Assembly: GCA_012517435.1 (NCBI GenBank)
Contig: JAAYUY010000076.1
Coordinates: 1,609 to 65,608, forward strand
Length of the DNA: 64,000 bases
DNA from: Sphingobacteriales bacterium
GTDB lineage: Bacteria > Bacteroidota > Bacteroidia > CAILMK01 > JAAYUY01
Reading direction: 5' to 3'
Positions within the stretch are counted from its first letter, which is position 1. Each line of letters begins with the position of its first letter. Below are positions 2,269 to 31,025 of this stretch, one piece after another. Both the position numbers and the translations under genes were made by a program. The notes below the pieces were generated by a model. The model saw only the letters and a list, made by a program, of their open reading frames with translations. It had not been told where the DNA came from and made no database searches.

Positions 2269-2271
2269 TTT

Positions 2272-5200
2272 TTACCTCCTGAATATTTTATGTCTCAGCA
2301 CACCGTCTTTGGTCGTTATTTCAACCATGTAGAGGCCTTTCGCATAATTCATGAGGTCGATGCGGTGGCGATACTGTTTATCAAATACATCTCCTTTATA
2401 TTCGTCCATGACTGCCCCTTCGGAGTTAAGAACCCTGATATAGAGTTCTCCAATGTCCTGATTGGCTGTCATTTCCAGATTGACGTAATCGTCAGCAGGA
2501 TTGGGATAAATGACTACACCGATATACTGTCCTGAATTTTCATCACCAATGGATGTCGGATAAATATTGAGCTGTTTGGTGATTGTATCGCTTGTACAGC
2601 TATTGATAGCAATCAGTGTTACAGTGTATTTACCAGCTGCTTTATAGATATGTACCGGAGAATTGGCGGTGGAAGTTGATGCATCTCCAAAGTTCCATTG
2701 ATAAGATGTGGCATTCTTTGACTTATTGACAAATGATGCTGAATGGCTGTTGATGTACACATCAAAATCAGCTTCAGGAGGCAAGGTGTTGGAGCTGATG
2801 GTAATCAGCTTGCTCTGCAGGCAGAGTTTGCTGTCTTTTACCCAAATTTCATAGGTTCCGGATTTAAGATTGCTGAAAGTACCTGATGCCTGATAGTTGA
2901 CACCATCTTTCGAATAGGTGTAAGGTGCGGTACCACCTGCGCCACTTACCGTCAATGCACCGGTACCGTCATTCGGACAGTTTTCATTGGTGATGTTATC
3001 CACTTTAATGCTTAGTGGTGCGGAAGGTTCGCTGATGGTAACCTGCTGATCGGTCTGACAACCATTCTGGTCGATTACCGTAACCGTGTAAACTCCTTTC
3101 ACCAGATTGATAAAGTTGGAATCGCTGCGGTAATGTACTTTATCCAGCGTGAATTTATACGGTTTGACACCACCTGAGGCATGGACTGTAAGTTTTCCAC
3201 TGAAGTCGCCATAGCAGGCCACATCTGTCTTGTCGATGCTCTTGATGGTCAGTGCCTGTGCAGGCTCTGTGATGGTAAAGCTGACTGAATCAAGGCACAG
3301 GTTGGCATCTCTGATGTAGGCTTTGTAATTGCCTGCAGGGAGATTGTTGAAGTAACCACTGGCCTGGAAGGTAGTTCCGTTCAGGCTATACTGGTACAGT
3401 CCGGTTCCGCCTGTTCCTGTCAAAGATACACTTCCTGTTGAGCTACCCTTACAACTGACATTTGTTTTGGAAGCAACGGTTACATCGAGTGCAGCAATAG
3501 GCTCTGTAATGGTAACACCCTGGGATTCACTGCAGTTGTTGCCATCTTTGACGGAAACAATATAGTATCCTGCTTTCAGTCCGTTGAAGACATTGCCGGC
3601 CTGATAGGTCTTTCCGCCATCAGCAGAATACTGATAAGTACCGGTACCTCCTGTTGCTGTCAATGTAATGCTTCCGGTCATATCTCCCTTACATTTAACA
3701 TTGACTTTCGATACGGTAATGACAATCGGGTCAGGCTCTGTAATGACAAAACTGCCGGTATCCATGCATCCTCTCTGGTCTTTTGCAAAGACACTGTATG
3801 ACCCTTTGCCCAGCTTGACAAAATTACTGTCGTTCTGGTAAGTGGTTCCGTTCATTGAGAAGGAATAAGGACTGGTGCCTTTGTGTGCATGAACGGTGAT
3901 TTTACCGTCATTAAGCCCGGCACAGGTAATGTTGTAGGCATCAATGTTAATATCAGGTTTCGGATAAATGGTTACCGGAATGGTAAGGCTGTCGGAACAA
4001 CCATGATTGCTGGTGGCTACCAGTTTGACCTGATAGGTTCCGGCTGAAGCATACATTTTTGTTGCATGCATGGAAGTAGTGGTCGATCCGTCTCCGAAAT
4101 ACCATTTGTAAGTCAATACACCTGTATTGATGGAAGATGTATTGGTAAAGCTTGCCTGATTGCCATAACAAACATTGGCGGTTGTGAACGATACTGAAGG
4201 AGCATCGTAAACCGTTACTGATTTGGTAACGCTATCGGAACAGCCTTTATCAGAAACAGTAACCAGTTTTACCGTATAAGTGCCCGGAGCTGAATAGAGT
4301 TTGGTTGGATTAATGACAGTTGAACTTGAGCCATCGCCAAAATACCAGGTATGTGACATGGTACCGCTGCTGATGGTAGAGTTGTTGACAAAGCTGGCAC
4401 TGTGTTTATCGCAGACATTGGCCGTACTAAAGGAAACTTTCGGCATGGCATATACAGTGATGGTTTTGGTTGAGCTGTCTTTACATCCGTAATTGGAAGT
4501 GGCTACCAGTTTTACATTGTAGCTATTGGCAACAGAATAGGTATGGTTCGGGCTCATAACAGTGGAAGTAGCGCCATCGCCAAAGTTCCATGCAAACGAC
4601 ATTGATCCGGAAGTAATGGTTGAATTATTATAGAAGCTGGCAGAACTGCCTTCGCAAATATTGTTAAAGGTAAAGGATACCACAGGCATCGGGTAAACGG
4701 TTACCTGACTTGAGATGGTGGATACACAACCTTTATCGGAAGTAACTGTCAGTGTAACAGTGTAAGTTCCGGCAGCTGCATAAAGGTGGGCAGGACTGGT
4801 TTGCGTGGAGGTGGTGTTGTCTCCGAAATTCCACAAATAACTCATGGTACCACTGCTGATGGTACTGCTGTTGGTAAAGCTGGTGCTGGTACCGTAACAC
4901 ACATTGCTGGCACTGAATCCGGCAACCGGCAACGGATAAACAGTTACCTGCTTGCTTAAAGTATCAATACAACCTTTGTCAGTGGTTGCCTGCAACACAA
5001 CTGTAAAGGTACCACTGGCAGAATAGGTATGATAAGGACTTACATTATTGCTGCTGTTACCATCTCCAAATGTCCAGTAATAACTGTTGCTGCCACCCGA
5101 TACGGATGAGGTGTTTTTGAATTCAATGGCCGTTCCCTGACAATCATTATTGGCGGTAAAGCTGACTGTCGGCATTGGATAAACGGTTACACTTGAATTA

Positions 5201-8200
5201 TAAGTGGAAACACATCCTTTATCACTGGTAGCTTTCAGGCTTACGGAGTAAGTACCTGCCGAAGCATAGAGATAGCTCGGACTGGTGGAAGTTGAGGTAT
5301 TGCCATCTCCAAATGTCCAGTAATAGCTCATCGTGCCGGAGCTGATTGTACTCGTATTGTTAAATGAAACATACTGTCCGTCACAGACATTATTGGCACT
5401 AAAGCCTGCAACCGGCACCGGATTGACATTCACAGTCTTGACCACACTTGCCACACAACCCTTATCGCTGGTGATGACCAGTTCAACGCTGTATGTTCCA
5501 CTGGAGGCATAAGTATAGTTCGGGCTGACGTTGTTGGAAGTATTTCCATCTCCAAATTTCCAGAGATAACTCATTGATCCTGAAGAAATAGTTGAATTAT
5601 TGGAGAAGCTTACAGCATTGCCGTTACATACATCATTGGCAGTAAATGAAGCAACCGGCATCGGATTCACAGTAACTGTCTGAGTTATACTGTCTTTGCA
5701 GCCGTTTGATGTACTGACCACCAGTTTGACGGTATATGTACCGGCTGATGCATATTTATATTTAAAGCTTGTTGCTGTGCTTGTGTTTCCATCACCCAGA
5801 TACCACATATAATCCATGGTTCCTGAACTGATAGTGCTTGTATTGGTAAATACTGTTGAGTCACCTGAACAAACCGTTGTAGCGCTGAAGCCTGCATGTG
5901 GTGCAGGATAAACCACCACCTGTTTAATCAGACTGTCTTTACAGCCATTGTTGGTGGTTGCTATCAGTTTTACGTCAAATGTTCCTGAACCAGTATAGGT
6001 ATGTGTCGGGCTGGTGTTGGCTGAAGTTGATCCATCACCAAAGTTCCAGCTATAGCTATTGGTACCGCTACTTACACCTGAATTATTGGTGAAGGAGACC
6101 TGATTACCTTCGCACACATTGGCAGCAGTGAAGCTGACCACCGGCATCGGATAGACTGTTACTGTCTTGCTGATGCTGTCTTTGCAGCCATTACCTGAGG
6201 TAACTACCAGTTTTACCGTATAAGTGCCTGCAGATGCATAGGTGTAAACCGGATCGGATGAGGTGCTGCTGTTGCCGTCTCCGAATGTCCAGACATAACT
6301 CATCGTGCCGCTGCTGATCGTGCTCGTGTTGGTGAAGCTGGTGGCTGTGCCTTTACAGACATCGCTGGCATTGAAGCCTGCCACAGGCTGCGGATACACT
6401 TCTACGGTCTTCACCAGACTGTCCACACATCCATTATTGGTAGTGGCTATCAGTTTTACACTGTATGTGCCACTGGCTGAATAGGTATAATTAGGACTGG
6501 TATTATTCGAGGTGTTGCCATCTCCGAAATTCCACAGATAGCTGTTACTACCGCTGCTTACACTTGAGCTATTGACAAAGTTCACAGCCTTGCCGTTGCA
6601 GACATTGGCGGCTGTGAAGCTGACCACCGGCATCGGATAGACCGTTACTGTCTTGCTGATGCTGTCTTTGCAGCCATTAGCTGAGGTAACTACCAGTTTT
6701 ACCGTATAGGTGCCTGCAGATGCATAGGTGTAAACCGGATCGGATGAGGTACTGCTGTTGCCGTCTCCGAATGTCCAGACATAACTCATCGTGCCGCTGC
6801 TGATCGTGCTGGTATTGGTGAAGCTGGTGGCTGTGCCTTTACAGACATTGCCGGCATTGAAGCCTGCCACCGGCTGCGGATACACTTCTACGGTTTTCAC
6901 CAGACTATCCACACATCCATTGTTGGTAGTGGCTATCAGTTTTACACTGTATGTGCCACTGGCTGAATAGGTATAATTAGGACTGGTATTATTCGAGGTA
7001 TTGCCATCTCCGAAGTTCCACAGATAGCTGTTACTACCGCTGCTTACACTTGAGCTATTGACAAAGTTCACTGCCGTGCCGTTGCAGACATTGGCGGCTG
7101 TGAAGCTGACTACCGGCATCGGATAGACTGTTACCGTCTTGCTGATGCTGTCTTTGCAGCCATTATCTGAGGTAACTACCAGTTTTACCGTATAGCTGCC
7201 TGCAGATGCATAGGTGTAAACCGGATCGGATGAGGTGCTGCTGTTGCCGTCTCCGAATGTCCAGACATAACTCATTGTGCCGCTGCTGATCGTGCTGGTA
7301 TTGGTAAAGCTGGTGGCTGTGCCTTTACAGACATTGCCGGCATTGAAGCCTGCCACCGGCACCGGATAGGCGGTTATTGTCGAAATGGCTGTATCTTTAC
7401 AACCCTTGTCCGAAGTGGATATCAGGGTAACAGTATAAGTATTTGCAGTAGTATAGGTATGTAACGGATTGACCGAAGTTGATGAGGTATAATCTCCGAA
7501 GTCCCAGACATGGGTTAAGGTGCCGGAACTTACAGTTGAAGTATTGCTGAAGCTAATGGATTTTCCGGTACAGTTGTCGGTAGCACTGAAGGCAGATACT
7601 GGTTTTGGATAAATACTGATTGATTTGACCGTTGAATCCTTACATCCGAAGTTGCTTGTGGCTACAAGGGTAACATTGTAGCTGCCATCAGCATTGTAAT
7701 AATGACTGGGTGATGCAGTCGTGCTGCTGCTTCCGTCTCCGAAATTCCAATTACTGGTAAACGTTCCGCTGGTGATATAGGTAATATTGTTAAAGCTTGC
7801 ATTCTGGCCATAGCAAACGTCATTGAGGGTGAAGTTAACAATCGGATTCGGATATATGGTCACGTTATAGGTGAATACATCTGTACAGTTATTGTCAGTT
7901 ATCACTGTTAAGGTTACCACATAAGTACCTGAAGACTGATAGAGATGTTTCGGGTGCTGAACTGTTGAAGAATCACCATCGCCAAAGCTCCAGATATAAC
8001 TCATGGTTCCTGAAGAAAGGGTCGAAGTATTGGTAAACACAGTAGAATCGCCAAAGCAATTGTTATTGACAGTGAAGGAAGCTACCGGCAGCGGTGTAAC
8101 CTTAACAACAGAAACTGCTGTGTCGCGGCAACTGTAATTGGAAGTAACTATTAACTGAACGGTATAATTACCTGCCGAATTATAAAGATGAACCGGGTTC

Positions 8201-23200: not shown

Positions 23201-26200
23201 TTGTATGTTCCAAGTACCACCTGTTCTGTATCTCCCGGTATCAGTAGTCCGGTCCATGCCACCGGTGTCTGGCTTACTCCGTTCACTTCCCAGCGAATGG
23301 TGTCGCTGGTAATGTTGTAAGTTCCCAGATTCTTTATTACCACCTTAACTGTCTGCGAAGTTGAACAGATTGGTTTGACAGGTGACAGCAGTTGTGTCAC
23401 ACTCAGATCATAACCACTTGATGGTTTTTCATAGGCTCCGATGGTAGGAGCAATTCTTGCAGAATCAAAAATATCAACTGTTATACCCAGTCCGCCAACA
23501 CCTACATTCAGGTTATTGTTGTTGTGTCGGAGATCGGTATTGCTATAGAAACCCGGAACCTCAACAATGGAATGGGCATCCTGCAGCGTTCCGGCTCTCC
23601 ATTGCGAAATGGTATTGTAAAATGTGGAATTGGCATATCCGATAAAGGTTGCATAGAAACAGTTATAATCGCTTGCTGATACATAATCTATCGGGCTCAG
23701 ATACATGCAAATGCTGTTGCCATTGTATAAAATATTGTTTTTTACGATATTGTTGGAATTAGTACTTCCTGATAAATACATACAGGTGTTACCTGTTGTT
23801 CCTGCTGAGCCAACCACAATGTTTATGCTGTTGTGGTAATATTTGTGCCATGTACAACCAGATGAGTAAATACCATAGTTTGACCCTGTACTTGTGCCGG
23901 TATGTGATATGAAGTTATTGGCAATCAGACCGGGGGATGATAGTGTCCCGATGCCCTGGATGATATACATCCCATAATTCGTGCTGGTGGACCTGACCTG
24001 TACGTTATTTTGGGTAATTTCCAGTGCATTGTAACAATAATAAGCATAAATTCCATATTCAGTGCTGTATGCCCCCATTCCTCTTATTGTGTTTTTATTG
24101 ATTTTCAGGTTGCTCTGATAATAATTATATAACCCATAATAATAGAAGGAGTCAATCAGGTTGCCGGTAATTTCATTGGCTTCTTCCATATCAGACGAAC
24201 TGACTCCATAGGTATAAATACTATAAGAGCCATATTTAATCACATTATTCTTGATTTTATTGTAATTTGCCTTATTGGCAGTAGAAGTATTGTGATAAAC
24301 AACTGCCTGTGATGTTGATGTAGTTGAACCAATATATCCGTATAAATAGCAGCTTTCAACGGTATTATAATTTGTCAGTCCCTGGAATACAACTACATTT
24401 GCGTAGGTTGTCCCCAATGCATAGAGTTTCATTCCTTTCCATGTTACATAATCTGCTTCATAAAAGCGAAGTACCCAGTTATCGCCTGTTCCTGTAGCTG
24501 AATAGTTAATAATAACCGGATTGGTATTGGCCGGGTCAGGCTGGAAGACAATATAATTGGTAAGCGAAGCACCGTTGATTTGCGGAATGGTAATCTGAGT
24601 ATTGTAAGTTCCTTCTCTGACATAAAAAATAGTCGGGCCGCAAACACCCTTGTTGGTGAGATCTGTAATGGCATCATTAAAGGTAGCATAATCGGGGCTT
24701 GACCCTCCGATGGTATAAATGCCGCTCATCCCTAACTGGGCAATAGTTACAACAGCAGTAGCAGTATCATTATAAATATTCGGGTCTGTCTGAGTGTTGT
24801 TGATGACCTTGCCTACCCAAGCCTTGACGGTGTAGGTTTGTGAGACGGTAAATGAATAAGTTCCGATGGTAACATTTGTGCTGTTTCCGGAAGCCAGTGT
24901 ACCACTCCATACATAAGGAGTTTGTGCAGTTCCGTTTACCGACCAGAAAATGGTATCATGGGTTAATGTCTGTAAACCATAGTTGTTAAGGGTAACAATA
25001 ACGGAAGAACCGCAGAAAGGAACAGATGGAGACACGATGGCTGAAATACCGGCATCATAGGAAGGTGTTTTGTATTCATAAGCCCCAACTGTAGGTGTAA
25101 CCCTCACAGTATCATAGATATCTGTGGTAATTCCAAGTCCGGTTTCCCCGAAATTCATGGCATTGCTGAAATGCATAGGACTGTTGACCCATGGGAACTG
25201 CGGGTCAACACTCATTGAATTGGCATCCTGCAGGGAGGTGGATTGCCAGTTGCTCAGGGTGTTGCAGTTGGTACCTCCCCAGTTTCCGAGAATGGTTCCA
25301 TTTGTATAGAAGTCATTATAGTTGCTGCTGGTAAATGTGGCGGTAGATGCCGTATAAATGCAATAACCCGATGATTTGTTGACAAGAAGATTATTCCTCA
25401 GTTTTATGGTATTGTTGGTAATTGGTGTAGAGAAATACATACAGACATTGGAAGTAGAAGATGGTCCGGCATAATTTACCACAGAATTGTGGTAGAAATT
25501 GACATAGTTGGTGTAATAAACATAAAAACCGTAAGCTGTTCCGGTGCCACCGTTAATTGAAACAAAGTTGTTGGCTACCGTATGGGTGTTTGCTAAATCT
25601 GTTCGGCAATAATACATATAAACACCATAAGAAGTATTTGATGAAGTCCGGGTGTGAATTATCTGATTTTGCTGAACACTCACCAGGGTATCACAGTAAT
25701 ATAAATCCAGACCATACAACGTAGTAGCAGATGGCCCGCCTCTGACAATATTTTTATTAATCGTGGTTTTTCTGTTGTAATATAACCACAATCCTTCCTG
25801 ATAGAAAGAGTCAATCAGGTTACCGGATATATTGTTCAGGTATTCATACGTACTTTGAGAGGTACTGTTTCCATACAGATAAATACCATAAGATCCATAT
25901 TTAATGGTATTATTGGTAATGTTGGTATATTCTGTATTGTTCCCGGAACCTGAAAGGTCATAGATAACCGCATAATTGCTTCCGGTACTGGTGGAATAAA
26001 GTCCCTGAAAGATATTGCTGTCGAGGGTAATGTATTTGTTGTTCCCCTGAAATTTTACAACATTTGCATAACCAGTTACAGAATTATTTATTATTTTCAG
26101 TTTCTTTACGGTAATATAATTTGCCCCATTGAACATGATCACATAAGGAAAGCTTGAAGTTCCTGCATAATAAATTACAGGAGTAGTGCTGTTGGCCGGA

Positions 26201-29200
26201 TCAGGGCGGAAAGTTATGGTATTGGTTGGTGAAGCTCCGATAATATTAGTAAAGGCAAACTGCTCGTTGTAGGTGCCCGACCTGACATAGAACACAACAG
26301 GACCACACACGCCACCTGCATTCAAATCACTGACGGCTTCTGTAAAAGTAGCATAATCCGGTGAAGTACCTCCAATGGTATAAGTACCTGTCAAACTCAA
26401 TGTAGCTTTAACTTTTTTCAGGTCATTGGATGTATTTCCGTCAGAGGCACTGTTTGGATTTTCTGTCCATGCATATACACTGTCTCCTTTTGTAAGAGTA
26501 AGCACACCAACTGTAACATCCAGCGTATTGTACGAAGGTACTGAAATTGAGCTCAGGCTGTAAGTAGTAACCGTACCATTGTAGTTTTTCTTAAACTTGA
26601 CATCCACAGAGGTCAATGTTGAGGTACCATAATTGTAAATCCTTACTTTTACAGAGTCGGTACCCGGGCAGGAAGGATCGGAGGAAGAGGGTTTTAAAAT
26701 GTCTGTTACCCCTGCATCATTGGCATAAGGCGTGAATTCATCGGCTCCGATATCCGGTGTGGAAGCATGACGGCTTTCTCCGTCAATATCATCTGATACC
26801 GAAGTAACCGGTGTACCCGATGCATTCAGATTGCTGTTCACCGTGTGGAGATCATAGGTGGTGAAATAATATGGATTGACTGATTTTGAGTTTGCATCCA
26901 GCGAGGTTCCGGAATTCCATGAAGAAAGAGTCCCGTAACTGGTTCCATTGTAGTACCCCAGATTGGTGCCTGTAGCGTAAAAATTATTGTAATTACTCGT
27001 ATTTACTGTCGTGCTGGATGAGTAATACATGGCATAACCGCCTCCGGTATTCGACACACAGTTGTTTTTTACGTCATGATATGCCGATGAGGATGTGAGG
27101 TACAAACCATAACTACTGCTCGTTACTCCCGTAATATTTACACTGTTGTAATATATTTCCGAATAAGTTCCGGCATCATAAATCATATAGGTAGAGCCCG
27201 TTCCAATGGCTTGAGAAACAAAATTATTCGCAATTAATGATTTCTTGGTTGATGAGTTGGATCCACTTCTGTAAATACCATAATTGGTATTGGTGGAATT
27301 GTTTCCTTTCAGCGTTATTTTATTCTTTACAATTTCATTTATGGTCGAACCGCTATTGTCATAATAACTGGAAGCATAAATACCATACTGAGTGCTTGTC
27401 CCTTCTATGATTATTTCATTTCCATTGGTCTGGTTATTGGTATATGCTGAGTTGTAATAAATCCCATATTTGGTTCCGCTTCCGCCATTATAGATGTAAT
27501 TATTGTTTACTTTATTTCCAGTATTAAAATTAGTACCATAAAAACCATAGGCGGTAGAGGAAGTTGTCAGGTTAATGTTATTCCCGATAACCTCAGCATT
27601 CTGGCAACCGGAATTGTTGAAATAAATCCCATAATAGGTTGTTGAACTGGAGGAAGTAATACGATTGTATCTGATTTTCGCATAATTTTGATAATACATG
27701 TAAAAACCATACTGATACTGATTTTTAACCACATTGCTGTCAAAGGTATTATACTGGCAATAACTGCTGCTATAACCATAAAAGTAAACAGCGTAGGTGG
27801 CACCATCAAAAATGCAGTATTTAGAGGTGATTGACCCGGAATTGGAAGAGGCTGCCGTGGAATACAGATACCAGATGGCCCAATCGGTAGAAGCAGTAGT
27901 GGTTTGATTAGCCAGAAAACGGCAACTTTGAAACACCAGACTATCTGCTTTGGAGGCAAACTCAATCACCCTGCCCCGGCCGGTGGAGGTATTCTGAAAG
28001 GTAATCTGTTTGAAGGTAATATGGCTGCATCCGTTAAGTTTCAGGACATAGTTGTCTGTAGCCGTGGCATTATTGCTTAAAATGACCTTTGAACTGTCGC
28101 CTGAGTATGACCTGAAGAGAATAGTATTGGAGGTCGAAGCTCCCGGAATATTATTGATGGTGTAGTATCCGTTGTATGTCCCGTCATAAATTTCAAACAC
28201 AACGGCTGCATTCACACCTCTGCCGTTCAGATCGTTAATGGCTGCTGTTACAGAAGTATAATTGCGCGGTCCGGTGGTATTTGGGTCTATGGTATAGGTT
28301 CCGTTCATGGGCTCTGTAATCAGCCTTTCTCCTGTCGGATTCGATACCACAGGATATTTTGTCAGAATAGTTCCTGACGAATCAATGATGATGGTATCAA
28401 TGGTCCCGTCAATATAATCCCCGAGGCTTGCTGCAGTTACCACATCATAAGCCAGCCAGAAATAATTGGTTCCTGCGAGCAATGCCTGCGAACCGCTGAC
28501 AGAAAAGGTGTTGGTTATCGTATTCAGTGTTGAACCAAACTGAGTAGTGGTTGAAAAGGTAGAATCGTTTCCTGTATAGTAAACCCTTGCATTTTCCACA
28601 TCGCTCAGCGAAGTTGTTCCGCTGGAGGTAAATGCCAGCCGCTTGAGGATAAGCGGATTTGAACAGCCTGTGGTAATTATCTTCACGCCTAATACTTCGT
28701 TTTTAACCGAATTAGGCACTACCACCCCAAGATTGCTGTGAAATCCTGTTGCATAATTCATGGCATGAGCCGAAGGATTGTCGTCTGCACCGGCAAAAGC
28801 AGGCAAGGCACGGCAATTTCCGTCTATATCCGTAGTAATTCCATATAAAGACTGAACTATTTTCAATGAAGTATTGGAAGTATGCAGATCGCTGGTACTC
28901 GTAAAGGAAGGATTTACGTTTATTGAATTGGCATCATTGTTATTAAAGTTGTTTTTCCATGTTGCAAGGGTGCTTTTTGTTACACTGTTCAGATAACCCA
29001 TCTGTGCACTGCCGGTATAGTAAAAATTATTGTAATCGCAGGAAGTAATATTGGTAGAAGCATAAGAACTGGAAACAATCATAGCATAACCGGTACCTGA
29101 TTTTGAAATATTGTTATTTAAAAATCTTATATCCAGATAACTTGAACTGGTAGAGGTAGGTATATAAACTGCCGCACACGAAGTTGCTGAAGAGCCTGAA

Positions 29201-30489
29201 CAGGTATTGTTCACACTGTTAAACATGAAATCTGTGTAACCGCAGGAAGTCAAATAAACACTGTATATGGTTGAACCTGTACCGTTGGCTGTGGCAACAA
29301 AGTTATTATACACCTTGTTCCTTGCCGATGCAGTACCATAGCAGCTTGATAAATATAAACTATAACTTGTACCAGTAGTTGCTCCTTTACAATAAATTTT
29401 ATTACCTGAAATATTGGTGGTTAGGCTGCCGTTTGTGCCAGTAGCACTCGAAACATATATCCCGTATTGCGTGCCGGTACCTCCTGCAGAAACTTCTACG
29501 ATATTATTTTGAATCTGTGGTCCGTTGTAAGTACTTGATAAATACATACCATAAGTCGTAGAAGAGGAGGTTACATTAACATTATTGCCGGTAATAGTTG
29601 AATAATAATTGCTGGAGCCATAAATTCCATATAATGTTGATGAACTTGTTATATTGACAGTATTGTTGGAAATAATGGCATAATAGGAATAATAGACATA
29701 TATACCATACCTTGTAGTAGTTGCACCGGTATAGCTAATATTATTACCCGTAATTACAGAGTAGTAAAAAGGATAATAATGATAAATTCCATAATAATAA
29801 AAACCACCTATCTTGTTTCCTATTAATGAATCATAGGATGCATTGTATGAAGTAGAGCTCGCATAATATAAATAAAAACCAGAATAACCATTATTGACTA
29901 CATTGTATTTAAAAGCATTTCCCTGAAATTTACCACTTGAACTGACAGTAGCTCCAATTGATACTACTCCGTAATTTGCTCCGGAGGTAGTGGTTGTAGC
30001 TCTTTGAAGAATACAGTTTTCAATTTTGATATAATTGGTACCATACGTACTACTTGGATTAAACCTTACGGCATTCCCGGTCCCTGTACTGGTATTTACG
30101 ATTTTTATCCATTTAAACCGGTAATACTGAACATTACCTGTAGAAGGTGTAAATTGAACGGTAGCAGTGGTACTCGAATCGGTCAAAGTTACCTTTGTAC
30201 TGTCCATGCTCTGACTGACAAAAGTAATCATATTGGATGCAGAAGCTCCTGTTACATCCCGAAGGGTAATCGCTTCATTATAGGTTCCGTCTCGCACGAC
30301 AAAGGTAACACCACCCGTACCAACACCTTTGCTATTCAGGTCGGATATGGCTGCTGTAAAAGTGGCATAATCAGGGCTGGTGCCTCCGATGGTCTTCGTT
30401 CCGGTCAGGGCCTGGCCCCGGCTTTCCGTTACTGAAAACAGTACTGTAACTGCAATAAATACAATGAAATTCAATACGGCTCTTTTCAT
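2272..30489 (-). CDS. Giant (9405 aa) T9SS-secreted cell-surface adhesin-like protein. It has nine beta-helix/CARDB supermodules, BACON/Ig-like domains, a MAM-like jelly-roll domain, about 33 PKD domains, five SprB repeats and a type-A C-terminal sorting domain.
   Basis: Uninterrupted 28,218-nt ORF. The signal peptide is MKRAVLNFIVFIAVTVLFSVTESRGQ. The N-terminal part shows periodic NxxYGIY beta-helix rungs, PDIGADE-type linkers and CARDB-like Ig domains. It is followed by long arrays with the WxFGDG...GxYxVxL PKD signature. The C-terminus (YPNPADDYVNLEM...GLYMVEITTKDGVLRHKIFRR) is a Por_Secre_tail-type CTD. Confidence 0.93.
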   Translation of the reverse strand: MKRAVLNFIVFIAVTVLFSVTESRGQALTGTKTIGGTSPDYATFTAAISDLNSKGVGTGGVTFVVRDGTYNEAITLRDVTGASASNMITFVSQSMDSTKVTLTDSSTTATVQFTPSTGNVQYYRFKWIKIVNTSTGTGNAVRFNPSSTYGTNYIKIENCILQRATTTTSGANYGVVSIGATVSSSGKFQGNAFKYNVVNNGYSGFYLYYASSTSYNASYDSLIGNKIGGFYYYGIYHYYPFYYSVITGNNISYTGATTTRYGIYVYYSYYAIISNNTVNITSSSTLYGIYGSSNYYSTITGNNVNVTSSSTTYGMYLSSTYNGPQIQNNIVEVSAGGTGTQYGIYVSSATGTNGSLTTNISGNKIYCKGATTGTSYSLYLSSCYGTASARNKVYNNFVATANGTGSTIYSVYLTSCGYTDFMFNSVNNTCSGSSATSCAAVYIPTSTSSSYLDIRFLNNNISKSGTGYAMIVSSSYASTNITSCDYNNFYYTGSAQMGYLNSVTKSTLATWKNNFNNNDANSINVNPSFTSTSDLHTSNTSLKIVQSLYGITTDIDGNCRALPAFAGADDNPSAHAMNYATGFHSNLGVVVPNSVKNEVLGVKIITTGCSNPLILKRLAFTSSGTTSLSDVENARVYYTGNDSTFSTTTQFGSTLNTITNTFSVSGSQALLAGTNYFWLAYDVVTAASLGDYIDGTIDTIIIDSSGTILTKYPVVSNPTGERLITEPMNGTYTIDPNTTGPRNYTSVTAAINDLNGRGVNAAVVFEIYDGTYNGYYTINNIPGASTSNTILFRSYSGDSSKVILSNNATATDNYVLKLNGCSHITFKQITFQNTSTGRGRVIEFASKADSLVFQSCRFLANQTTTASTDWAIWYLYSTAASSNSGSITSKYCIFDGATYAVYFYGYSSSYCQYNTFDSNVVKNQYQYGFYMYYQNYAKIRYNRITSSSSTTYYGIYFNNSGCQNAEVIGNNINLTTSSTAYGFYGTNFNTGNKVNNNYIYNGGSGTKYGIYYNSAYTNNQTNGNEIIIEGTSTQYGIYASSYYDNSGSTINEIVKNKITLKGNNSTNTNYGIYRSGSNSSTKKSLIANNFVSQAIGTGSTYMIYDAGTYSEIYYNSVNITGVTSSSYGLYLTSSSAYHDVKNNCVSNTGGGYAMYYSSSTTVNTSNYNNFYATGTNLGYYNGTSYGTLSSWNSGTSLDANSKSVNPYYFTTYDLHTVNSNLNASGTPVTSVSDDIDGESRHASTPDIGADEFTPYANDAGVTDILKPSSSDPSCPGTDSVKVRIYNYGTSTLTSVDVKFKKNYNGTVTTYSLSSISVPSYNTLDVTVGVLTLTKGDSVYAWTENPNSASDGNTSNDLKKVKATLSLTGTYTIGGTSPDYATFTEAVSDLNAGGVCGPVVFYVRSGTYNEQFAFTNIIGASPTNTITFRPDPANSTTPVIYYAGTSSFPYVIMFNGANYITVKKLKIINNSVTGYANVVKFQGNNKYITLDSNIFQGLYSTSTGSNYAVIYDLSGSGNNTEYTNITNNTIKYGSYGIYLYGNSTSQSTYEYLNNISGNLIDSFYQEGLWLYYNRKTTINKNIVRGGPSATTLYGLDLYYCDTLVSVQQNQIIHTRTSSNTSYGVYMYYCRTDLANTHTVANNFVSINGGTGTAYGFYVYYTNYVNFYHNSVVNYAGPSSTSNVCMYFSTPITNNTIKLRNNLLVNKSSGYCIYTASTATFTSSNYNDFYTNGTILGNWGGTNCNTLSNWQSTSLQDANSMSVDPQFPWVNSPMHFSNAMNFGETGLGITTDIYDTVRVTPTVGAYEYKTPSYDAGISAIVSPSVPFCGSSVIVTLNNYGLQTLTHDTIFWSVNGTAQTPYVWSGTLASGNSTNVTIGTYSFTVSQTYTVKAWVGKVINNTQTDPNIYNDTATAVVTIAQLGMSGIYTIGGSSPDYATFNDAITDLTNKGVCGPTIFYVREGTYNTQITIPQINGASLTNYIVFQPDPANTNPVIINYSATGTGDNWVLRFYEADYVTWKGMKLYALGTTYANVVVFQGLTNYNTVESCYLYGYIGSTTSTSQAVVYHNTSTANKANYNKIKNNVIKYGSYSIYTYGVSSSDMEEANEITGNLIDSFYYYGLYNYYQSNLKINKNTIRGMGAYSTEYGIYAYYCYNALEITQNNVQVRSTSTNYGMYIIQGIGTLSSPGLIANNFISHTGTSTGSNYGIYSSGCTWHKYYHNSINIVVGSAGTTGNTCMYLSGSTNSNNIVKNNILYNGNSICMYLSPIDYVSASDYNCFYATFIGYANSTFYNTISQWRAGTLQDAHSIVEVPGFYSNTDLRHNNNNLNVGVGGLGITVDIFDSARIAPTIGAYEKPSSGYDLSVTQLLSPVKPICSTSQTVKVVIKNLGTYNITSDTIRWEVNGVSQTPVAWTGLLIPGDTEQVVLGTYNINTGSSYTFKVYHSYINGTIADINPGNDTLNVTGIQRGMSGNYTIGGTSPDYPTFTAAVNALIANGVCGPVVFNARNGTYTEQFSIPAISGASATNTITFQSEALDSSKVTIYYDATTQYGQYIVQLFNTSHIILRYLTIWNNSTSGYNRVIDIANGTDSIYILNNRLVGVSTTSSGTGYAVIYSDGSMANYRVQNVTIRYNRIENGSASIYLNGYTNASLNLYTWNNVIEYNVCKDFYYYGIYAYNQRGIKINNNILQSPSAAAYYPIYTYYFYYGCQVNNNTITTTGTTSTGYGIYSYYSYFGNQFNNNTISISGTYYQYGISLYYPYSGNQVNKNDITLTYTGTTTAYYQYGIYLQSMDSAYGSQKSTVLKNNVRLIGNSSYYIYQYGLYYISGWGNSMTYKNLIANNFISLTNNPSGYAYAVYFSSPGYTDFVHNTIHVASSSSSYYAFYVTGVQVTNSVDVVNNNFVNTAAGYCAYYSTNTAIRWMNNNNYYTTGTYLGYWGGARTDLAAWKTATAKDSSAVNYNPNFVSSTNLHASNTNMNNKGVGLSWLVADDIDNESRNASTPDPGADEYNVATLDAGISAIVSPSSAVCPGSVTPTVRIKNYGTATIDSVWVKYKVNYNGTVTSVKVVTTILSNGYYDYAFAGSINMNYGDTLYAWTEDPNNSTDNNTSNDLYKNRILQKLSGTLTIGGVSPTFSSFTEAVTALQTYGVCGPVTFLVRQGTYNEQITIPAISGISSSNTVTFRSDYSNSQMPVLTYAGTGSTNWIVRFNATSYITFKKIKFINTSTIYGTVFNFTGANEYLTLDSNWIEGTGNAASGNWASTNLALLYGTSGNQLHRSNITNNTMKYGSYGVYLMGNSTSDPERTNNFTGNTLDSFYYMGMYFYYHCYLTLDKNTLRSRGVYSTEYGLYLYYCDTSLAITGNNIMLRSTQTNYGIYMNYCRSNSTKAIPVNNNFVSITGGTTSTTYGIYLYYSSYNKLYHNSVNLLAGQANSSASACYYLYGSSSQYNEFVNNIGVHKNQGLALYLYPDNYLSACDYNDYYTNGNYFIYSGTYGYQSSLSQWILNSPWDDHSKDLDPSFYSNTDLRHYSSTMNFGVTGTGVTTDIFGTTRISPTVGAYEYIQPAYDAGITAILNPVVPLCALTGNVTVTLKNFGSTTLTSDTIRWSINGTAQTPYAWTGSLASGQTANVNIGAYSFTAGNSYTIKAYPSYFNGTQADGNPTNDTSTSAGIRTGLSGTYTIGGSSPDYSSFTEAVNALVTYGVCGNVVFNVRQGTYYEQIEIPAIPGAIQSRSVTFQNDPANTYDAVLTYAPSSSLTNYVLRFNGAKCITIKGLKIQTSSSAYGRVIEFKGNNDSITILNNKIYGSTFLSSSDIYTVIYNYSSGANTCNDITIQGNTIKYGSYAIYWFGDASPYEYRNAFISNTIDSFYTYGIYSYYQYDIKIQRNLIRSRSLITGEYGIYLINSNTSTGSTGSEISRNRIFLKGPGSDYGLYMNSCSGNSSVPFAVFNNYISIYGSNTSSAVYGLAVYSSQYVNIYHNSVNVQAGPSNTTSNAGLYLSGSSNYYNNVKNNIVVNKNSYAIYLSPNDYVASCDYNDLYTNSLYLCNNGTNYTTLSAWQAGSGWDANSVNIDPGFVSNTDLSHSNYSLNRGVTGLGISTDIFDSTRYTPTIGAYELKPIARDAGIIAILSPVHPSCAATADVKVTIKNFGTAALTSDTIRWTVNGVAQTPYAWTGNLSFGDTAQVVIGQYTLSTNTAYNFKVYVSYFNGQYAETQTGNDTVYGNNIYRGMSGTYTIGGTSPDFASFNAAVTALSTQGICGPVVFNVRNGVYTEQVVIPSITGSSATNTITFQSESNDSTKVTLQYSATLSTANYTIKLDGADYIIIRKMTIKALGTTYSRVVDLTNQANYNTFTSNIFIGYYSTNTSDANAVVYSYYTSQSTHCTFNTFTYNVVKYGSYGFRWGGYSPSYSEGNVFNYNLVDSFYYYGVFIYNQKAAKADYNTVRTNNTYINYGIYITQCYYQTEAIGNTVLLDGSSNTKYGIYFTSCYYGPRVNDNQITINSTYVQVGIYLTSCYYNDNMVKPTVLRNKVILKGTTSSSTSVGIYMNSLQGNGSSVEYRWLIANNFVSLYNGTGTCYGVQYTSCNNTDFIHNSISIRNGSTSSAALYFNHSSTNTYNYFYNNIASNTGGGYAVYIASSYVPQASDYNNIYATGTYIGYLNGSSYTSFANWQTAVTPFEANSKNYNPSFWSANDLHTWNTQLNAGTPVTYVNTDIDGHSRSTSTPTIGADEIRPAMKYVSSTTTQSVTSNVTPGSSYNQILGIQVVTSGEDSAISASKFSFTTNGTNSPTTNIQNARLYYTGTSNNFSIANQFGSTVSAPNGRFIITGTQELQAGTNYFWLAYDVKSGANIGDTIDAECDTVIVDDTARINTVTAPAGFRKITNDKVLSRIEYVQPSTDDVYRDSNYYPVLRLDFVVNGTTSNLYLDSLEVTAVNTSNSDIDTVRLFRTTTPTFSTAVPVGTGKVLSGGSVKWNSINYDLPGNSTTYLWITYDITSNAVWFNTVDAKIKANSISVNGSLYPTTDQNPTGSRMVNMLPLTLPYSEDFETATTPYTYTASTRPLNGSGLEEWQFESVPAPTDQSRLQMNAGSVYNHTTGGAYAALIDNAVFNSWAVGNLILTLNLSNYVGATDLDISFWYMYQMYRQYSAEDGVWVRGNNDPSTPWVLLYDISANRAGDMTWKNASASISDVLRNAGQSVSGTTQLKFSYKSRYQLGNEAVIFDDINISGTVPVNNDAGVYAITGPTPPYAPGTKSISATIKNYGLNTLTSAKVNWKVNGTAQSQQAWGGSLTSGQTATQSLGNVSVSDGILYTIVANTSEPNATTDNKPANDTATGYICAALSGNYTIGGTSPNFATFSDAAFFLNNCGVRGPVTFNVRAGTYNEQFELGQIPGASAVNTITFKSEDNDTSKVILTYGNSTSSTNYVISLNGTDYITFQYLTIRNTSNTYNRVIYATNSANYVKIKYNHIISSSTSVNGNNSDVVSFVGTGSGNYCQYDEVQYNTIENGYNGVVMNGYSYPVVYGNKIDYNTIKNFTYQGINVNQQRGISITNNTISSPVVGFYGININQIAYTSDVSYNSINVASYGIYAINCYYGNKFNNNIIDINSSNFKYGIYFSSVYYVNGTTKTQIQNNKIQLQGLNTAYGIYLYYFNGDNNTAANRNLVANNFVSITNSSTSYTHYGIYSYNSHYTDYYYNSVNITTGANNSSALYLYATTSGLYFKNNIFNNSGGGYAVYIPMSSVATITQFDYNNLRTTGSDLVYYNSTNYSSLATWNSASGLDQNSISKNPYFVSNTDLHVKTDTMKAGTPVTSFVTTDIDGATRSTSAPYIGADEGRENDAQLVSVTATPGCPGNYAVYVTLKNNGANYLTKDSIRWSVNGVPKTTYYWTGSLPTDSSITFSIGIHNFTSNENIVAVSYKPNGQNDPDASNDTATATIAPNPNPVAGFSIADDKQCLSGNSFSFTDGSTVSSGSIASWSWTFGNGNTSTSQNPSGISYSLAGTYDVKLVVTTNNGCKDSITKQVTVDPQPVADFSIADDKQCLSGNSYSFTDGSTVSSGSVSGWSWTFGNGNTSTSQNPSGITYSAAGTYNVKLVATTNNGCKDSITKQVTVDPQPVADFSIADDKQCLSGNSFSFTDGSTVSSGSVSGWSWTFGNGNTSTSQNPSGITYSVAGTYNVKLVATTNNGCKDSITKQVTVDPQPVADFTIDDNKQCLSGNSFTYTDNSSVSSGTITSYYWTFGDGTTSTSQNPPAKTYSTAGTYNVKLVVTTNNGCKDSITKQVTVDPQPVADFSIADDKQCLSGNSFSFTDGSTVSSGSVSGWSWTFGNGNTSTSQNPSGITYSLAGTYNVKLVATTNNGCKDSITKQVTVDPQPVADFTIDDNKQCLSGNSFTYTDNSSVTSGTITSYYWTFGDGTTSTSQNPPAKTYSTAGTYNVKLVVTTNNGCKDSITKQVTVDPQPVADFSIADDKQCLSGNSFSFTDGSTVSSGSVSGWSWTFGNGNTSTSQNPSGISYSLAGTYNVKLVATTNNGCKDSITKQVTVDPQPVADFTIDDNKQCLSGNSFTYTDNSSVSSGTITSYYWTFGDGTTSTSQNPPAKTYSTAGTYNVKLVVTTNNGCKDSITKQVTVDVQPVASFTTGNTCRENPATTFNTSTVSSGSITASLWNFGDGNTSSSTNGSHIYSNPGNYTIKLIVTTNNGCQDSTTNNITVYPKPVADFYAPNSSIDDTVQFSDSSTITSGSIVGFYYDFDDGTNSTLQNPKHKYLTYDTFYVSQIVVSDYGCKDTQVNQLIIYPKPGANFNYTNECYGFTTTFTNTSYAPPGQTFVSHHWDFDDGTTSTLQHPTHQYSASGTYDVQLIVTTNTGGKDTVVKTVTVYPKPMADFTINDDKQCYSGHSFSFTNTSTVSSGSIVSYDWNFGDGTTSTAQNPSGKTYSVPDTFDVTLIVTTDNGCKDTIVKQVIVFPQSVADYSINNDKQCLSGNSFSFADLSTVSSGSISAWNWNFGDGGTSTTQNPTHSYTSAGTYTVKLIVTTDNGCQDSVSKSVTVYPQSAADFSINDDKQCLSGNSFSFTDNSTVSSGSITGWSWSFGDGNVSSSQNPTHSYSAAGTYSVKLMVTTDKGCIDSVIKNVVVYPQSTAGFNINDDKQCLSGNSFSFTDISTVSSGSITNWNWTFGDGSNATTQHPTKVYTSAGTYTVKLIVTTNNGCLDSASSSVTVDPQTTVSFSINNDKQCLKGNSFDFTDGSTVSSGSVTGFAWTFGDGSSSTLQNPTGKVYASAGTYDVKLITTTNNGCTDSLTKQITVHPQSSVDFSVANACLDDTLAFTNLSTISGGSIATHYWDFADTYNSTDQHPKHKYAVSGNYNVMLVETTDKGCKDTVVKTLTVYPKPDAVFTHDAGCVNQAINFYNSSSVSSGSITSYLWNMGDGSGAVIVKNPVHLYNSAGNYTVQLIVTSNYSCRDTAVSVVKVTPLPVASFTVNNNCFGDSTVFTNTSTLSSGTMSYIWSFGDGDSSTVQHPKHLYQSSGTYVVTLTVITDNNCTDVFTYNVTIYPNPIVNFTLNDVCYGQNASFNNITYITSGTFTSNWNFGDGSSSTTASPSHYYNADGSYNVTLVATSNFGCKDSTVKSISIYPKPVSAFSATDNCTGKSISFSNTSTVSSGTLTHVWDFGDYTSSTSVNPLHTYTTANTYTVTLISTSDKGCKDTAISTITAYPVPVAGFNAGNVCKGTATSFTNTSTISSGTMSYVWTFGDGNSSTSSDPVYTYASAGSYTVKLVVTSDNGCKDSISKTVTVYPMPVVSFTAANVCNGTAVNFVNSSSVSSGSNSYLWNFGDGNTSNNTSPNYTYSASGTYSVKLIATTNNGCVDSLVKTVEVYPQPVAGFNAGNVCKGTATSFTNTSTISSGTMSYVWTFGDGNSSTSSDPVYTYASAGTYTVKLVVTSANGCKDSISKTVTVYPMPVVSFTAANVCNGKAVNFVNSSSVSSGSNSYLWNFGDGNTSNNTSPNYTYSASGTYSVKLIATTNNGCVDSLVKTVEVYPQPVAGFNASDVCKGTATSFTNTSTISSGTMSYVWTFGDGNSSTSSDPVYTYASAGTYTVKLVVTSGNGCKDSISKTVTVYPMPVVSFTAANVCEGNQVSFTNNSGVSSGTNSYSWNFGDGSTSANTSPTHTYTGSGTFDVKLIATTNNGCKDSLIKQVVVYPAPHAGFSATTVCSGDSTVFTNTSTISSGTMDYMWYLGDGNTSTATSFKYKYASAGTYTVKLVVSTSNGCKDSITQTVTVNPMPVASFTANDVCNGNAVSFSNNSTISSGSMSYLWKFGDGNTSNNVSPNYTYASSGTYSVELVITSDKGCVASVVKTVNVNPVPVAGFSANNVCDGQYVSFNNTSTISSGTMSYYWTFGDGNTSTSTSPSYLYASAGTYSVSLKATSDKGCVSTYNSSVTVYPMPTVSFTANNDCQGTAIEFKNTSSVSGGSNSYYWTFGDGNSSNNVSPYHTYSASGTFTVVLQATTDKGCIDTLSKQVTVYPLPVAGFSASNVCYGTSTSFTNSSTISSGTMSYLWNFGDNTTSTQTSPAHLYAAAGTYTVTLTVTSDKGCVSTISSQVTVYPMPVVSFTFNNICEGSSASFYNNSTITSGSMSFAWNFGDGATSTVMSPNHTYSVANSYNVKLVATSNYGCKDSSTKTITVYAMPKVSFSTANVCDKHSASFVNNSTISSGTMSHTWYFGDGSSSTVINPTKLYSAPGTYTVKLVTVSDKGCSDSVTKSVTVYDAPSVSFTTANVCYGNQASFTNTSSINTGVLTYKWYFGDGSTTTSMHATKMYASAGTYQVKLVATSNHGCSDSLTIPVTIYPKPDINIDAYNITCAGLNDGKITVHAHKGTSPYSFSMNGTTYQNDSNFVKLGKGSYSVFAKDQRGCMDTGSFVITEPDPIVITVSKVNVKCKGDMTGSITLTATGGTGTYQYSADGGKTYQAGNVFNGLKAGYYIVSVKDGNNCSESQGVTITEPIAALDVTVASKTNVSCKGSSTGSVSLTGTGGTGLYQYSLNGTTFQASGYFNNLPAGNYKAYIRDANLCLDSVSFTITEPAQALTIKSIDKTDVACYGDFSGKLTVHASGGVKPYKFTLDKVHYRSDSNFINLVKGVYTVTVIDQNGCQTDQQVTISEPSAPLSIKVDNITNENCPNDGTGALTVSGAGGTAPYTYSKDGVNYQASGTFSNLKSGTYEIWVKDSKLCLQSKLITISSNTLPPEADFDVYINSHSASFVNKSKNATSYQWNFGDASTSTANSPVHIYKAAGKYTVTLIAINSCTSDTITKQLNIYPTSIGDENSGQYIGVVIYPNPADDYVNLEMTANQDIGELYIRVLNSEGAVMDEYKGDVFDKQYRHRIDLMNYAKGLYMVEITTKDGVLRHKIFRR
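2275..2530 (-). other. T9SS type-A C-terminal sorting domain (Por secretion tail) of the 9405-aa protein
   Basis: The last ~85 aa read ...IYPNPADDYVNLEMTANQDIGELYIRVLNSEGAVMDEYKGDVFDKQYRHRIDLMNYAKGLYMVEITTKDGVLRHKIFRR. The coordinates are approximate. Confidence 0.8.
2790..3965 (-). other. Five tandem SprB repeats near the C-terminus of the 9405-aa protein
   Basis: Five ~80-aa units have the CxG.xDG.I...GG..PY.YS pattern. One example is NITCAGLNDGKITVHAHKGTSPYSFSMNGTTYQ. The coordinates are estimated from residue counts. Confidence 0.6.
6105..7385 (-). repeat. In-frame tandem DNA repeat of 486-bp units (two PKD domains each), about 2.6 near-identical copies
   Basis: The string ggc(g/a)gc(t/a)gtgaagctgac(c/t)accggcatcggatagac recurs at 6121, 6609 and 7096. 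The protein shows ...YPQPVAGFNAGNVCKGTATSF...VKTVEV repeated with only a few substitutions. Confidence 0.85.
10612..12676 (-). repeat. In-frame tandem DNA repeat of eight 258-bp units (one PKD domain each). Two alternating variants in the order B A B A B A A A by ascending coordinate.
   Basis: The string ggctgcggatcgactgttacctgtttcgt recurs at exact 258-bp spacing, for example at 11120, 11378 and 11636. The protein units are near-identical (PQPVADFSIADDKQCLSGNSFSFTDGS... versus PQPVADFTIDDNKQCLSGNSFTYTDNS...). Identity is visibly above 95% between same-type copies. Confidence 0.9.
14795..15380 (-). other. MAM/cleaved-adhesin-like jelly-roll domain (choice-of-anchor-J-like) inside the 9405-aa protein
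   Basis: The segment runs LPYSEDFETATTPY...GWxx...FWYMYQ...VIFDDINISG. YSEDFE at the domain start is typical of this fold family in Bacteroidota surface proteins. The assignment comes from motif recall only. Confidence 0.4.
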
Positions 30490-30581
30490 ATACTTGAATT
30501 TAAAAATTTTACAAATGAAAATGGTGTTCCTTTTACCGGAAACACCTGATGACTGAAGTGATTGGGAACTATTTTCCCACA

Positions 30582-30598
30582 GGAGTAAAATTTACTCC
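30582..30598. promoter_or_regulatory. Perfect 17-bp palindrome ggagtaaaAtttactcc, a candidate operator or hairpin
   Basis: Read directly: 8 nt, a centre A, then the exact reverse complement. It lies ~95 bp upstream of the giant gene ATG, on the leader/promoter side. An adjacent 6-bp-stem hairpin tgggaa-ctatt-ttccca sits at 30563-30579. Confidence 0.35.
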
Positions 30599-31000: not shown

Positions 31001-31025
31001 TTGTCTGGTAAAATTTCATTTAAAG

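Follow-up and report, generated by a model that had tools for sequence, protein, structure and literature searches.

A 9405-residue type IX secretion system cargo protein with nine beta-helix supermodules and a PKD-rich stalk, a candidate static surface fibre of a Sphingobacteriales bacterium

Introduction

Type IX secretion system (T9SS) cargo proteins that belong to type A, such as RemA and AmyB of Flavobacterium johnsoniae and the gingipains of Porphyromonas gingivalis, possess a signal peptide and a C-terminal type A sorting domain of about 75 aa. Type A domains are collected by PorV (PMC12618676), and it is established that type A cargo is linked to anionic lipopolysaccharide (A-LPS) or released. 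Loading onto the gliding track is decided by the type B domain, which is necessary and sufficient in F. johnsoniae, and SprB given a type A domain is surface-exposed and immobile; a mobile subpopulation is known for the type A cargo RemA of the same organism (PMC12618676). Earlier work established that type B cargo requires a cognate PorP/SprF protein, which is encoded immediately downstream and serves as its anchor, and it has been proposed that non-mobile type B cargo is tethered to the wall of the cell by PorP-PorE (OmpA-like) complexes (PMC9143113). Here, a gene for a 9405-aa T9SS cargo protein (hereafter the giant protein) is analysed, which lies in a stretch of 64,000 nucleotides from a Sphingobacteriales bacterium, an uncultured member of the Bacteroidota (GenBank assembly GCA_012517435.1, contig JAAYUY010000076.1, positions 1,609 to 65,608 of the forward strand); this whole stretch is called the window.

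The giant protein shares with the known type A cargo proteins the signal peptide and the C-terminal type A domain. Compared with its typical type A relatives of about 2,000 aa it is about 4-5 times longer and has nine tandem beta-helix supermodules and a stalk with 36 PKD domains, and unlike other type A cargo it is encoded in a conserved cassette together with a type B cargo protein and a PorP/SprF-OmpA fusion. SprB of F. johnsoniae, encoded in the sprCDBF operon, resembles the giant protein as a huge repetitive T9SS surface protein with the PF13573 repeat and a PorP/SprF-family gene nearby, and is exceeded by it about 1.5-fold in size. However, SprB has a type B domain and sprF directly downstream, whereas the sorting domain of the giant protein is of type A, a small separate gene for a type B protein lies in between and the PorP protein carries an OmpA domain. 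The PorP-PorE-PG1035 system of P. gingivalis (PMC9143113) similarly combines a type B cargo with a PorP-like barrel tied to peptidoglycan by an OmpA-like domain, but at the present locus PorP barrel and OmpA domain form one polypeptide and the pair is encoded directly behind the gene of a 1-MDa type A cargo protein.

Type I-secreted giant adhesins such as LapA, SiiE and the ice-binding adhesin of Marinomonas are built from a long tandem Ig-like extender with distal ligand-binding modules. The giant protein follows the same design logic but differs in secretion system, in its C-terminal anchor (opposite polarity) and in its domain families, and it has no RTX repeats. Finally, each supermodule shares its fold class with right-handed beta-helix proteins, among them polysaccharide lyases (PL), glycoside hydrolases (GH), phage tailspikes and the adhesin PfbA. 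In contrast to the beta-helix enzymes, the supermodules show neither a sequence match to an enzyme family nor conserved charged residues in the helix body, and nine of them stand in tandem, with a cap like that of choice-of-anchor Q and a CARDB domain.

Results

The giant open reading frame

On the minus strand, window 2272..30489 is occupied by an open reading frame (ORF) of 9405 aa, which starts with ATG and contains zero internal stops according to ORF list and translation. The five alternative frames across the same 28.2 kb contain 328-703 stops each and their longest open run is 157 codons, while the probability of 9405 stop-free codons at this base composition is about 1e-241. Repeated protein units are recognisable from aa 26 to aa 9402 and it is therefore evident that the ORF is coding throughout. 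The single 28.2-kb ORF of the original prediction is thus real, intact and in frame. Its predicted product has a mass of 1013.5 kDa (about 1.01 MDa) and a pI of 5.4, and Thr, Ser, Asn, Gly and Tyr are abundant in it. From the numbering of accessions, the sequence has presumably already been deposited as a single coding sequence between NLJ06880.1 and NLJ06882.1, the flanking proteins in NCBI, for which the organism label is 'Sphingobacteriales bacterium' or 'Bacteroidia bacterium'.

A place among the very largest bacterial proteins, which had also been claimed, is overstated. In 2023, BV-BRC held 7,478 gap-free proteins of at least 10,624 aa and the longest ORF reported had 85,804 aa (bioRxiv 10.1101/2023.11.21.568195), and UniProt contains more than 41,000 proteins of at least 5000 aa (PMC11573180). 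With 9405 aa the giant protein is huge, and large for its own family, yet it does not rank with the very largest proteins of bacteria.

Domain architecture of the giant protein

Pfam and NCBIfam scans, an iterated in-house PKD profile, a windowed phmmer self-comparison and a hidden Markov model (HMM) of the supermodule were combined into the following map, given from the N- to the C-terminus (CBM, carbohydrate-binding module).

30415..30489, minus strand: start codon and Sec signal peptide, aa 1-25, MKRAVLNFIVFIAVTVLFSVTESRG, cleavage before Q, read off the translation
28714..30414, minus strand: supermodule 1, aa 26-592, a right-handed beta-helix with N-cap and C-cap and without CARDB (self-comparison, module HMM, 16-module alignment)
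28309..28713, minus strand: first BNR_assoc_N-type beta-sandwich, aa 593-727 (PF14873, 55-65 bits against a cut-off of 25)
16249..28308, minus strand: supermodules 2-8, aa 728-4747, starting at aa 728, 1365, 1920, 2467, 3118, 3671 and 4226
15370..16248, minus strand: two BNR_assoc_N-type beta-sandwiches, aa 4748-4863 and about 4864-5040 (PF14873, 69.4 bits in two stretches; phmmer self-matches and matches to relatives)
14809..15369, minus strand: jelly-roll domain without a Pfam or NCBIfam model, aa ~5041-5227, predicted CBM/MAM-like fold
14485..14808, minus strand: separate CARDB-type domain, aa 5228-5335, aligning to positions 496-597 of the module HMM
12670..14484, minus strand: supermodule 9, aa 5336-5940 (module HMM, 781 bits)
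3958..12669, minus strand: 35 tandem PKD domains, aa 5941-8844, with a unit length of 86 aa shrinking to 81 aa
2779..3957, minus strand: five SprB-repeat Ig-like units with paired Cys, aa 8845-9237 (PF13573, 134.6 bits against 28, five stretches)
2557..2778, minus strand: final PKD domain, aa 9238-9311 (PF18911, 48.7 bits)
2284..2511, minus strand: T9SS type A C-terminal sorting domain, aa 9327-9402 (TIGR04183 and PF18962; motifs YPNPA, GLYMVEI and KIFRR)

The signal peptide, judged by eye from the translation, has basic residues (K2/R3), a hydrophobic core of 16 residues and no Cys, and because of the missing Cys the giant protein is not a lipoprotein. Its nine supermodules comprise about 555-650 aa each, and every one of supermodules 2-8 consists of a beta-helix with an Asn ladder, a choice-of-anchor-Q-like cap (DIDG..R..PDIGADE) and CARDB, with the exception of module 8, in which CARDB is absent. 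Family models matched to the modules above their cut-offs were NosD (29.8 bits against 23.6), CARDB (28.2 against 22.7) and NF041518 (30 against 25), whereas PF13229 remained below its cut-off on the beta-helices (20.6-23.9 bits against 25.9). In the stalk, PF18911 matched 36 times (1632 bits) and PF00801 33 times (838 bits). The type A domain reached 28.4 bits (scan of the whole half) or 38.5 bits (scan of the tail) with TIGR04183, for which the cut-off is 23, and 39.2 or 51.3 bits with PF18962, for which it is 27. The type B sorting domain (TIGR04131/PF13585) had no match in the giant protein.

The giant protein is, in its architecture, a string of already known domains, and part of what had been predicted from the bare sequence is confirmed by these scans, namely a T9SS cargo protein with a type A C-terminal domain, beta-helix/CARDB modules (which the module HMM, the alignment and the structural model described below also bear out), about 33 PKD domains and SprB repeats, of which there are five. 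As to the predicted BACON/Ig-like domains, the Ig-like sandwiches present correspond to BNR_assoc_N, and BACON had no Pfam match at E<=0.01 on the whole giant protein or at E<=1 on eight segments of it.

Folds of head domains and the question of catalysis

Sixteen supermodule copies, nine from the giant protein and seven from the neighbouring gene for a 5482-aa paralogue, were aligned. Elements visible in the alignment are an N-cap (LSGTYTIGG...), an invariant Asn ladder, a C-cap like choice-of-anchor Q (DIDG..R..PDIGADE) and CARDB. An AlphaFold2 model of aa 3118-3670 was obtained with a pLDDT of 92.7 and a pTM of 0.86, and from this model the supermodule fold is a pectin-lyase-like right-handed beta-helix. 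When the model was compared with the PDB by Foldseek, many beta-helix structures were matched with a probability of 1.0, and CARDB structures matched its final ~100 residues.

Carbohydrate-active beta-helix proteins (GH136 lacto-N-biosidases, rhamnogalacturonan lyase, RbmB and PL6 alginate lyases) and phage tailspikes or depolymerases were the top structural matches. It might be considered that the giant protein is a multi-catalytic polysaccharide depolymerase, in which nine beta-helices act as lyase or hydrolase units on exopolysaccharide or plant glycans in a tailspike-like array and are targeted by Ig and CBM domains, and the presence of CBM-like and BNR_assoc_N domains would fit such an enzyme. 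However, the TM-scores to these structures are only 0.3-0.4 at an identity of about 10%, the non-enzymatic beta-helix adhesin PfbA is also among the matches, and no CAZy-type Pfam family was matched, the only models found being the generic Beta_helix and NosD. Furthermore, the residues that are invariant over the 16 modules belong to the Asn ladder, the caps and glycines, and neither a conserved acidic or basic groove residue nor any conserved charged residue in the helix body was detected, which favours a structural or binding role over catalysis. A depolymerase is therefore considered possible but rather unlikely.

The jelly-roll domain (aa ~5041-5227) had no Pfam or NCBIfam match even at E<=1, and no Pfam model covers this region in the relatives checked. 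A word-seeded search with the domain gave no match, and its 258 relatives among 1.84 billion representative proteins were found by a full HMMER scan. Its AlphaFold model (pLDDT 87.6) is a jelly-roll and was matched by Foldseek about equally well to CBM61/22/4/11/30/16, Reelin sub-repeats and MAM, with TM-scores of 0.4-0.59. The MAM domain of neuropilin-1 gave a TMt of 0.50-0.52 and an E value of 8.5e-5, and several CBM families scored equally well or better. The MAM-like domain of the original prediction finds partial support, at the level of a fold that resembles CBM families at least as closely, and not as a sequence family, as the MAM model PF00629 was unmatched at E<=1 on aa 4740-5340 and at E<=0.1 on nine relatives of the jelly-roll.

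Predicted export and attachment

With moderate confidence, the giant protein is interpreted as a static, surface-anchored (or shed) glycan-binding fibre that is exported via PorV. It would be exported by Sec and then moved across the outer membrane by the T9SS, and its type A C-terminal domain would be recognised by the PorV shuttle. By analogy with studied type A cargo, the PorU sortase complex would cut off this domain, and the protein would either become joined to anionic LPS or be shed. Attachment is expected at the C-terminus, and for this reason the 41 Ig-like units (36 PKD and five SprB-type) would form the cell-proximal stalk. The N-terminal 5,900 aa, with nine supermodules, three BNR_assoc_N sandwiches and one CBM/MAM-like jelly-roll, would then form a rod-like glycan-binding head directed outwards. 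From typical domain sizes, the extended fibre may have a length of about 250-300 nm. A likely role would be static adhesion to polysaccharide-rich surfaces, to other cells or to a floc matrix.

Genes directly downstream

Two genes follow the giant gene on the same strand, the second of which is cut by the window edge.

208..2268, minus strand: gene for a 675-686-aa protein that carries a T9SS type B sorting domain (TIGR04131, 67.7 bits against 35; PF13585, 86.1 bits) alongside five PKD domains
1..200, minus strand: start of a gene for a PorP/SprF-OmpA fusion (PF11751, 28.8 bits against 22.3; TIGR03519, 39.9 bits on its first 60 positions)

The type B gene begins 3-36 nt past the stop codon of the giant gene and is present on at least 11 contigs, and the PorP/SprF gene begins 7-19 nt after it, so that downstream of the giant gene a type B-domain gene is directly followed by a PorP/SprF-family gene. 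Full-length copies of the latter, found in loci L084-L092, L094 and L095, encode 527 aa and match PF11751 and PF00691 (OmpA-type, peptidoglycan-binding). Such a fusion is uncommon: among the 120 best relatives it was seen in 12, in one a SPOR domain takes the place of OmpA, and the others are PorP/SprF proteins of the ordinary kind with about 300 aa. It has the look of a Rosetta-stone fusion, with the PorP-PorE pair joined in one protein. The three-gene cassette of giant, type B protein and PorP/SprF-OmpA recurs in three further lineages, in which the PorP identity is 72%, 47% and 46%. As the PorP barrel is fused to an OmpA domain, a wall-tethered, non-mobile surface complex is predicted, and by analogy with the published proposal (PMC9143113) the downstream pair may constitute a wall-tethered type B anchor, with the PorP/SprF protein as the presumed cognate shuttle and anchor of the 675-aa protein.

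These neighbours bear on whether the giant protein could be a SprB-like mobile gliding adhesin, a fibre loaded on the gliding track and propelled along the cell surface, as the original prediction had suggested beside a biofilm or attachment fibre. Five SprB repeats, the giant repetitive nature of the surface protein, the type B cargo gene and the PorP/SprF-like gene directly downstream and the fact that the type A cargo RemA can move would all agree with gliding. Nevertheless, the sorting domain of the giant protein is of type A and not of type B, and without a type B domain it is probably no SprB-like mobile adhesin. The PorP/SprF gene follows the 675-aa gene and not the giant gene, and its fusion to a peptidoglycan-binding OmpA domain is, by the same proposal, a mark of non-mobile, wall-tethered cargo. 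SprB repeats are not specific to gliding adhesins because they are common to many type A cargo proteins, including relatives of the giant protein. A gliding adhesin is accordingly regarded as very unlikely, and the attachment fibre is the best reading of the evidence.

An extension of the static fibre would be that the type B PKD protein, docked on PorP-OmpA, acts as a base dedicated to the 1-MDa type A fibre or as a partner in its assembly, for instance by contacts between PKD domains, and that both form a composite wall-tethered organelle. This appears unlikely on present grounds and is put forward as a speculation.

Several observations weigh against a static glycan-binding fibre exported by the type A route. 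RemA is partly mobile, so a type A domain is no strict bar to mobility. The neighbouring 5482-aa paralogue contains seven of the same modules and lacks a recognisable sorting domain, which means that the head region can exist in another export context. All fold matches are generic (TM 0.3-0.6, identity about 10-17%) and no ligand can be named from them, and an enzymatic role of some supermodules would still be compatible with the models. Among T9SS-related genes, the window contains the PorP/SprF-family gene and genes for proteins with C-terminal sorting domains, and porK/L/M/N, sprA and porU/V would lie outside it. Co-transcription of the giant gene with the two genes behind it is probable, judging from the short intergenic gaps.

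Assembly support and duplicated PKD zones

Assemblies from at least eight samples jointly cover the giant gene except for about 0.5 kb. Window 21026-39011 is reproduced at 99.99-100% identity by two more assemblies of run ERR1876141, one from Logan and one from ENA; the copies of the giant in them are called with 5959 aa (Logan) and 6192 aa (ENA) and then reach the contig end. Contig L091 of the same ENA assembly corresponds to window 1-11424 at 99.84% without gaps. The sole stretch lacking a second assembly is window ~11425-11913 (aa ~6193-6355), which lies inside a zone of alternate PKD units that are 98-99% identical. The 3' part of the gene was found at 97-99% identity in contigs of JGI 3300010347, 3300025686 and 3300009664, ENA ERZ27257464 and ERZ795050 and two NCBI metagenome-assembled genomes, and the contigs of these seven further assemblies all begin, or carry a gap of 100 N, within window 6469-7224 or at 11129-11267. 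The contig breaks fall in two near-identical PKD zones (units 1-8 and units 22-27), in which alternate units are 96-99% identical at the protein level:

10625..12677, minus strand: duplicated PKD zone 1 (units 1-8), alternate units with 98-99% protein identity (TRF period 258, eight copies; identities of units i and i+2)
6112..7368, minus strand: duplicated PKD zone 2, a 486-nt (two-unit) repeat in 2.6 copies that are 96% identical (TRF)

Two-unit duplications thus have lengths of 486 nt and 516 nt. Exact repeats of at least 127 nt were not found within the giant gene. One assembly (L086) is short of two 81-aa PKD units, with 162 aa missing at aa ~7806-7967 in zone 2. Because all contigs break in recently duplicated PKD zones, the PKD count (35+1) is uncertain by multiples of two units. 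The two-unit difference in copy number and the near-identical alternate units suggest that the PKD stalk is still expanding and contracting.

An assembly chimera, an artefact of collapsed or expanded repeats or a pseudogene could in principle explain such an ORF, as each short-read assembly examined breaks within the PKD array, about 0.5 kb (window 11425-11913) has no second-assembly support and L086 has two PKD units fewer. On the other hand, 98% of the gene was found again in independent contigs at 97-100% identity and with no frameshift, and relatives at 46-59% identity retain the same long open architecture. The PKD repeat units are multiples of 3 nt, so an error in copy number cannot break the frame, and the region is stop-free only in this single frame. 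An artefact of this kind is extremely improbable.

Relatives and conservation

Assemblies of many samples contain the organism again, with a nucleotide identity of about 97-100% and, for the majority of contigs, of about 99%; a literature search for PRJEB19890 found no paper. Usual family members are type A cargo proteins of about 2,000 aa from Bacteroidota and Ignavibacteria that bear the name 'right-handed parallel beta-helix repeat-containing', and many relatives combine PF18962, PKD and SprB repeats. Among GTDB species representatives, the closest relatives of aa 1-1300 are just 32-36% identical and no close orthologue was found. In a homologue search with aa 1-1364 the listed proteins all had at most 2380 aa and the organism's own partial copies of 5959-6192 aa were absent; very long proteins seem to be overlooked by that search, and size comparisons were taken from loci and the representative library.

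At identities of 59% and 46-50%, the tail architecture (26-36 PKD domains, five SprB units, PKD, type A domain) recurs in relatives. Over more than 4,100 aa, locus L092 (ENA ERZ24794645) shows 46-50% identity, and its tail has jelly-roll, CARDB, supermodule, 36 PKD domains, five SprB units, PKD and type A domain as in the giant protein, and upstream, beyond a gap of 100 N, 2,000 more open codons are 47.6% identical to aa 2924-4838 of the giant. In one relative the same gene is open over 6,400 codons or more. In the complete relative P0140 (6318 aa) the multi-module head, BNR_assoc_N and jelly-roll are kept and the stalk differs. Related proteins from GTDB genomes have 5,407 and 6,143 aa (both complete) and, in Flavobacterium anseongense, at least 5,646 aa. 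In L094 (JGI 3300066682, a 390-kb contig) the gene upstream of the cassette is called with 3030 aa, is 46% identical and encodes at least 26 PKD domains, five SprB units, PKD and a type A-like tail; this is either a lineage lacking the beta-helix head or a gene split by a frameshift.

The region upstream of the giant gene

The giant gene and trkA are transcribed divergently from the following region.

30490..31025: divergent intergenic region between giant gene and trkA, with inverted repeat and terminator-like hairpin

A 22-nt inverted repeat (30673-30694 / 30754-30775, 95% complementary) lies upstream of a terminator-like hairpin at 30523-30546 (minus strand), which consists of GGTGTTTCCGGTAAAAGGAACACC followed by ATTTTCATTT and ends 33 nt ahead of the ATG of the giant gene. 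Three terminator-like sites were counted in the intergenic region, against 0.6 +/- 0.9 expected from shuffles. This region of hairpin and inverted repeat could be an attenuator or operator.

An unusually structured leader, as had been claimed, is supported in so far as the 311 nt upstream of the giant start fold with z-scores of -3.3 and -2.9 (two runs), beyond the minimum of -2.64 seen for 20 coding windows of the giant gene (mean -0.74, sd 1.3). However, the opposite strand of the leader folds even better (z -4.6) and the signal therefore comes from inverted repeats in the DNA, mainly from the 22-nt inverted repeat and a few short hairpins. Moreover, an Rfam scan of the leader gave no match at E<=1, and in L093, the only relative with a complete 5' end, neither sequence nor structure of the leader is kept (z -0.27). 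The claim is thus marginal. The -7 motif TAnnTTTG does not occur on the strand of the giant gene in the intergenic region and is not enriched window-wide; its sole intergenic occurrence, at 30993 on the plus strand (TAGCTTTG), is a Bacteroidetes-type -7 box located 26 nt before trkA.

Other genes in the window

The 5482-aa paralogue is encoded at window 46045-62493 (minus strand) and contains GEVED, seven beta-helix/CARDB supermodules (aa 289-4073) and eight further CARDB domains; neither a type A nor a type B sorting domain was detectable in its last 500 aa. A 340-aa protein without family (window 44999-46021, minus strand) is encoded 24 nt downstream of it and 3 nt upstream of the gene for a 2868-aa protein (window 36390-44996, minus strand) with Peptidase_M23, DUF7619, 17 PKD domains, one SprB repeat and a type A sorting domain. 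These three genes look like one operon, and a similar M23/DUF7619/PKD gene is found near the cassette in the relative L095. Just upstream of the 5482-aa gene, window 62566-63312 (minus strand) encodes a coiled-coil protein of 248 aa in which a PPKTPPKTPP stretch occurs.

Between the giant gene and the 2868-aa gene, window 31026-36339 (plus strand) contains two tandem Trk potassium-uptake pairs in mirrored order, with TrkA (447 aa), TrkH (482 aa), TrkH (585 aa) and a short TrkA (229 aa). At the right edge, window ~63640-64000 (minus strand) carries the 3' end of a gene that was recognised by eye as arginase/formiminoglutamase-like and that encodes the motif DIDGLD...PGTGTPVPGGL.

Discussion

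For the assembly of genes of this type, the case shows that tandem PKD duplications systematically break them in short-read assemblies. The conservation of the cassette in four lineages allows a test of the idea that PorP linked to OmpA or PorE goes with static cargo and free PorP with mobile cargo. If the type B protein and PorP-OmpA do form a composite organelle with the giant fibre, this would imply that the T9SS branches for type A and type B cargo interact functionally and that the translocon copes with a cargo about 1.5 times the size of SprB. The giant protein, if it is expressed, would with about 1 MDa be one of the larger T9SS substrates and would bear on the size limit for folded cargo of the SprA/Sov translocon, and as a surface fibre it may matter for aggregation in the communities in which the organism recurs.

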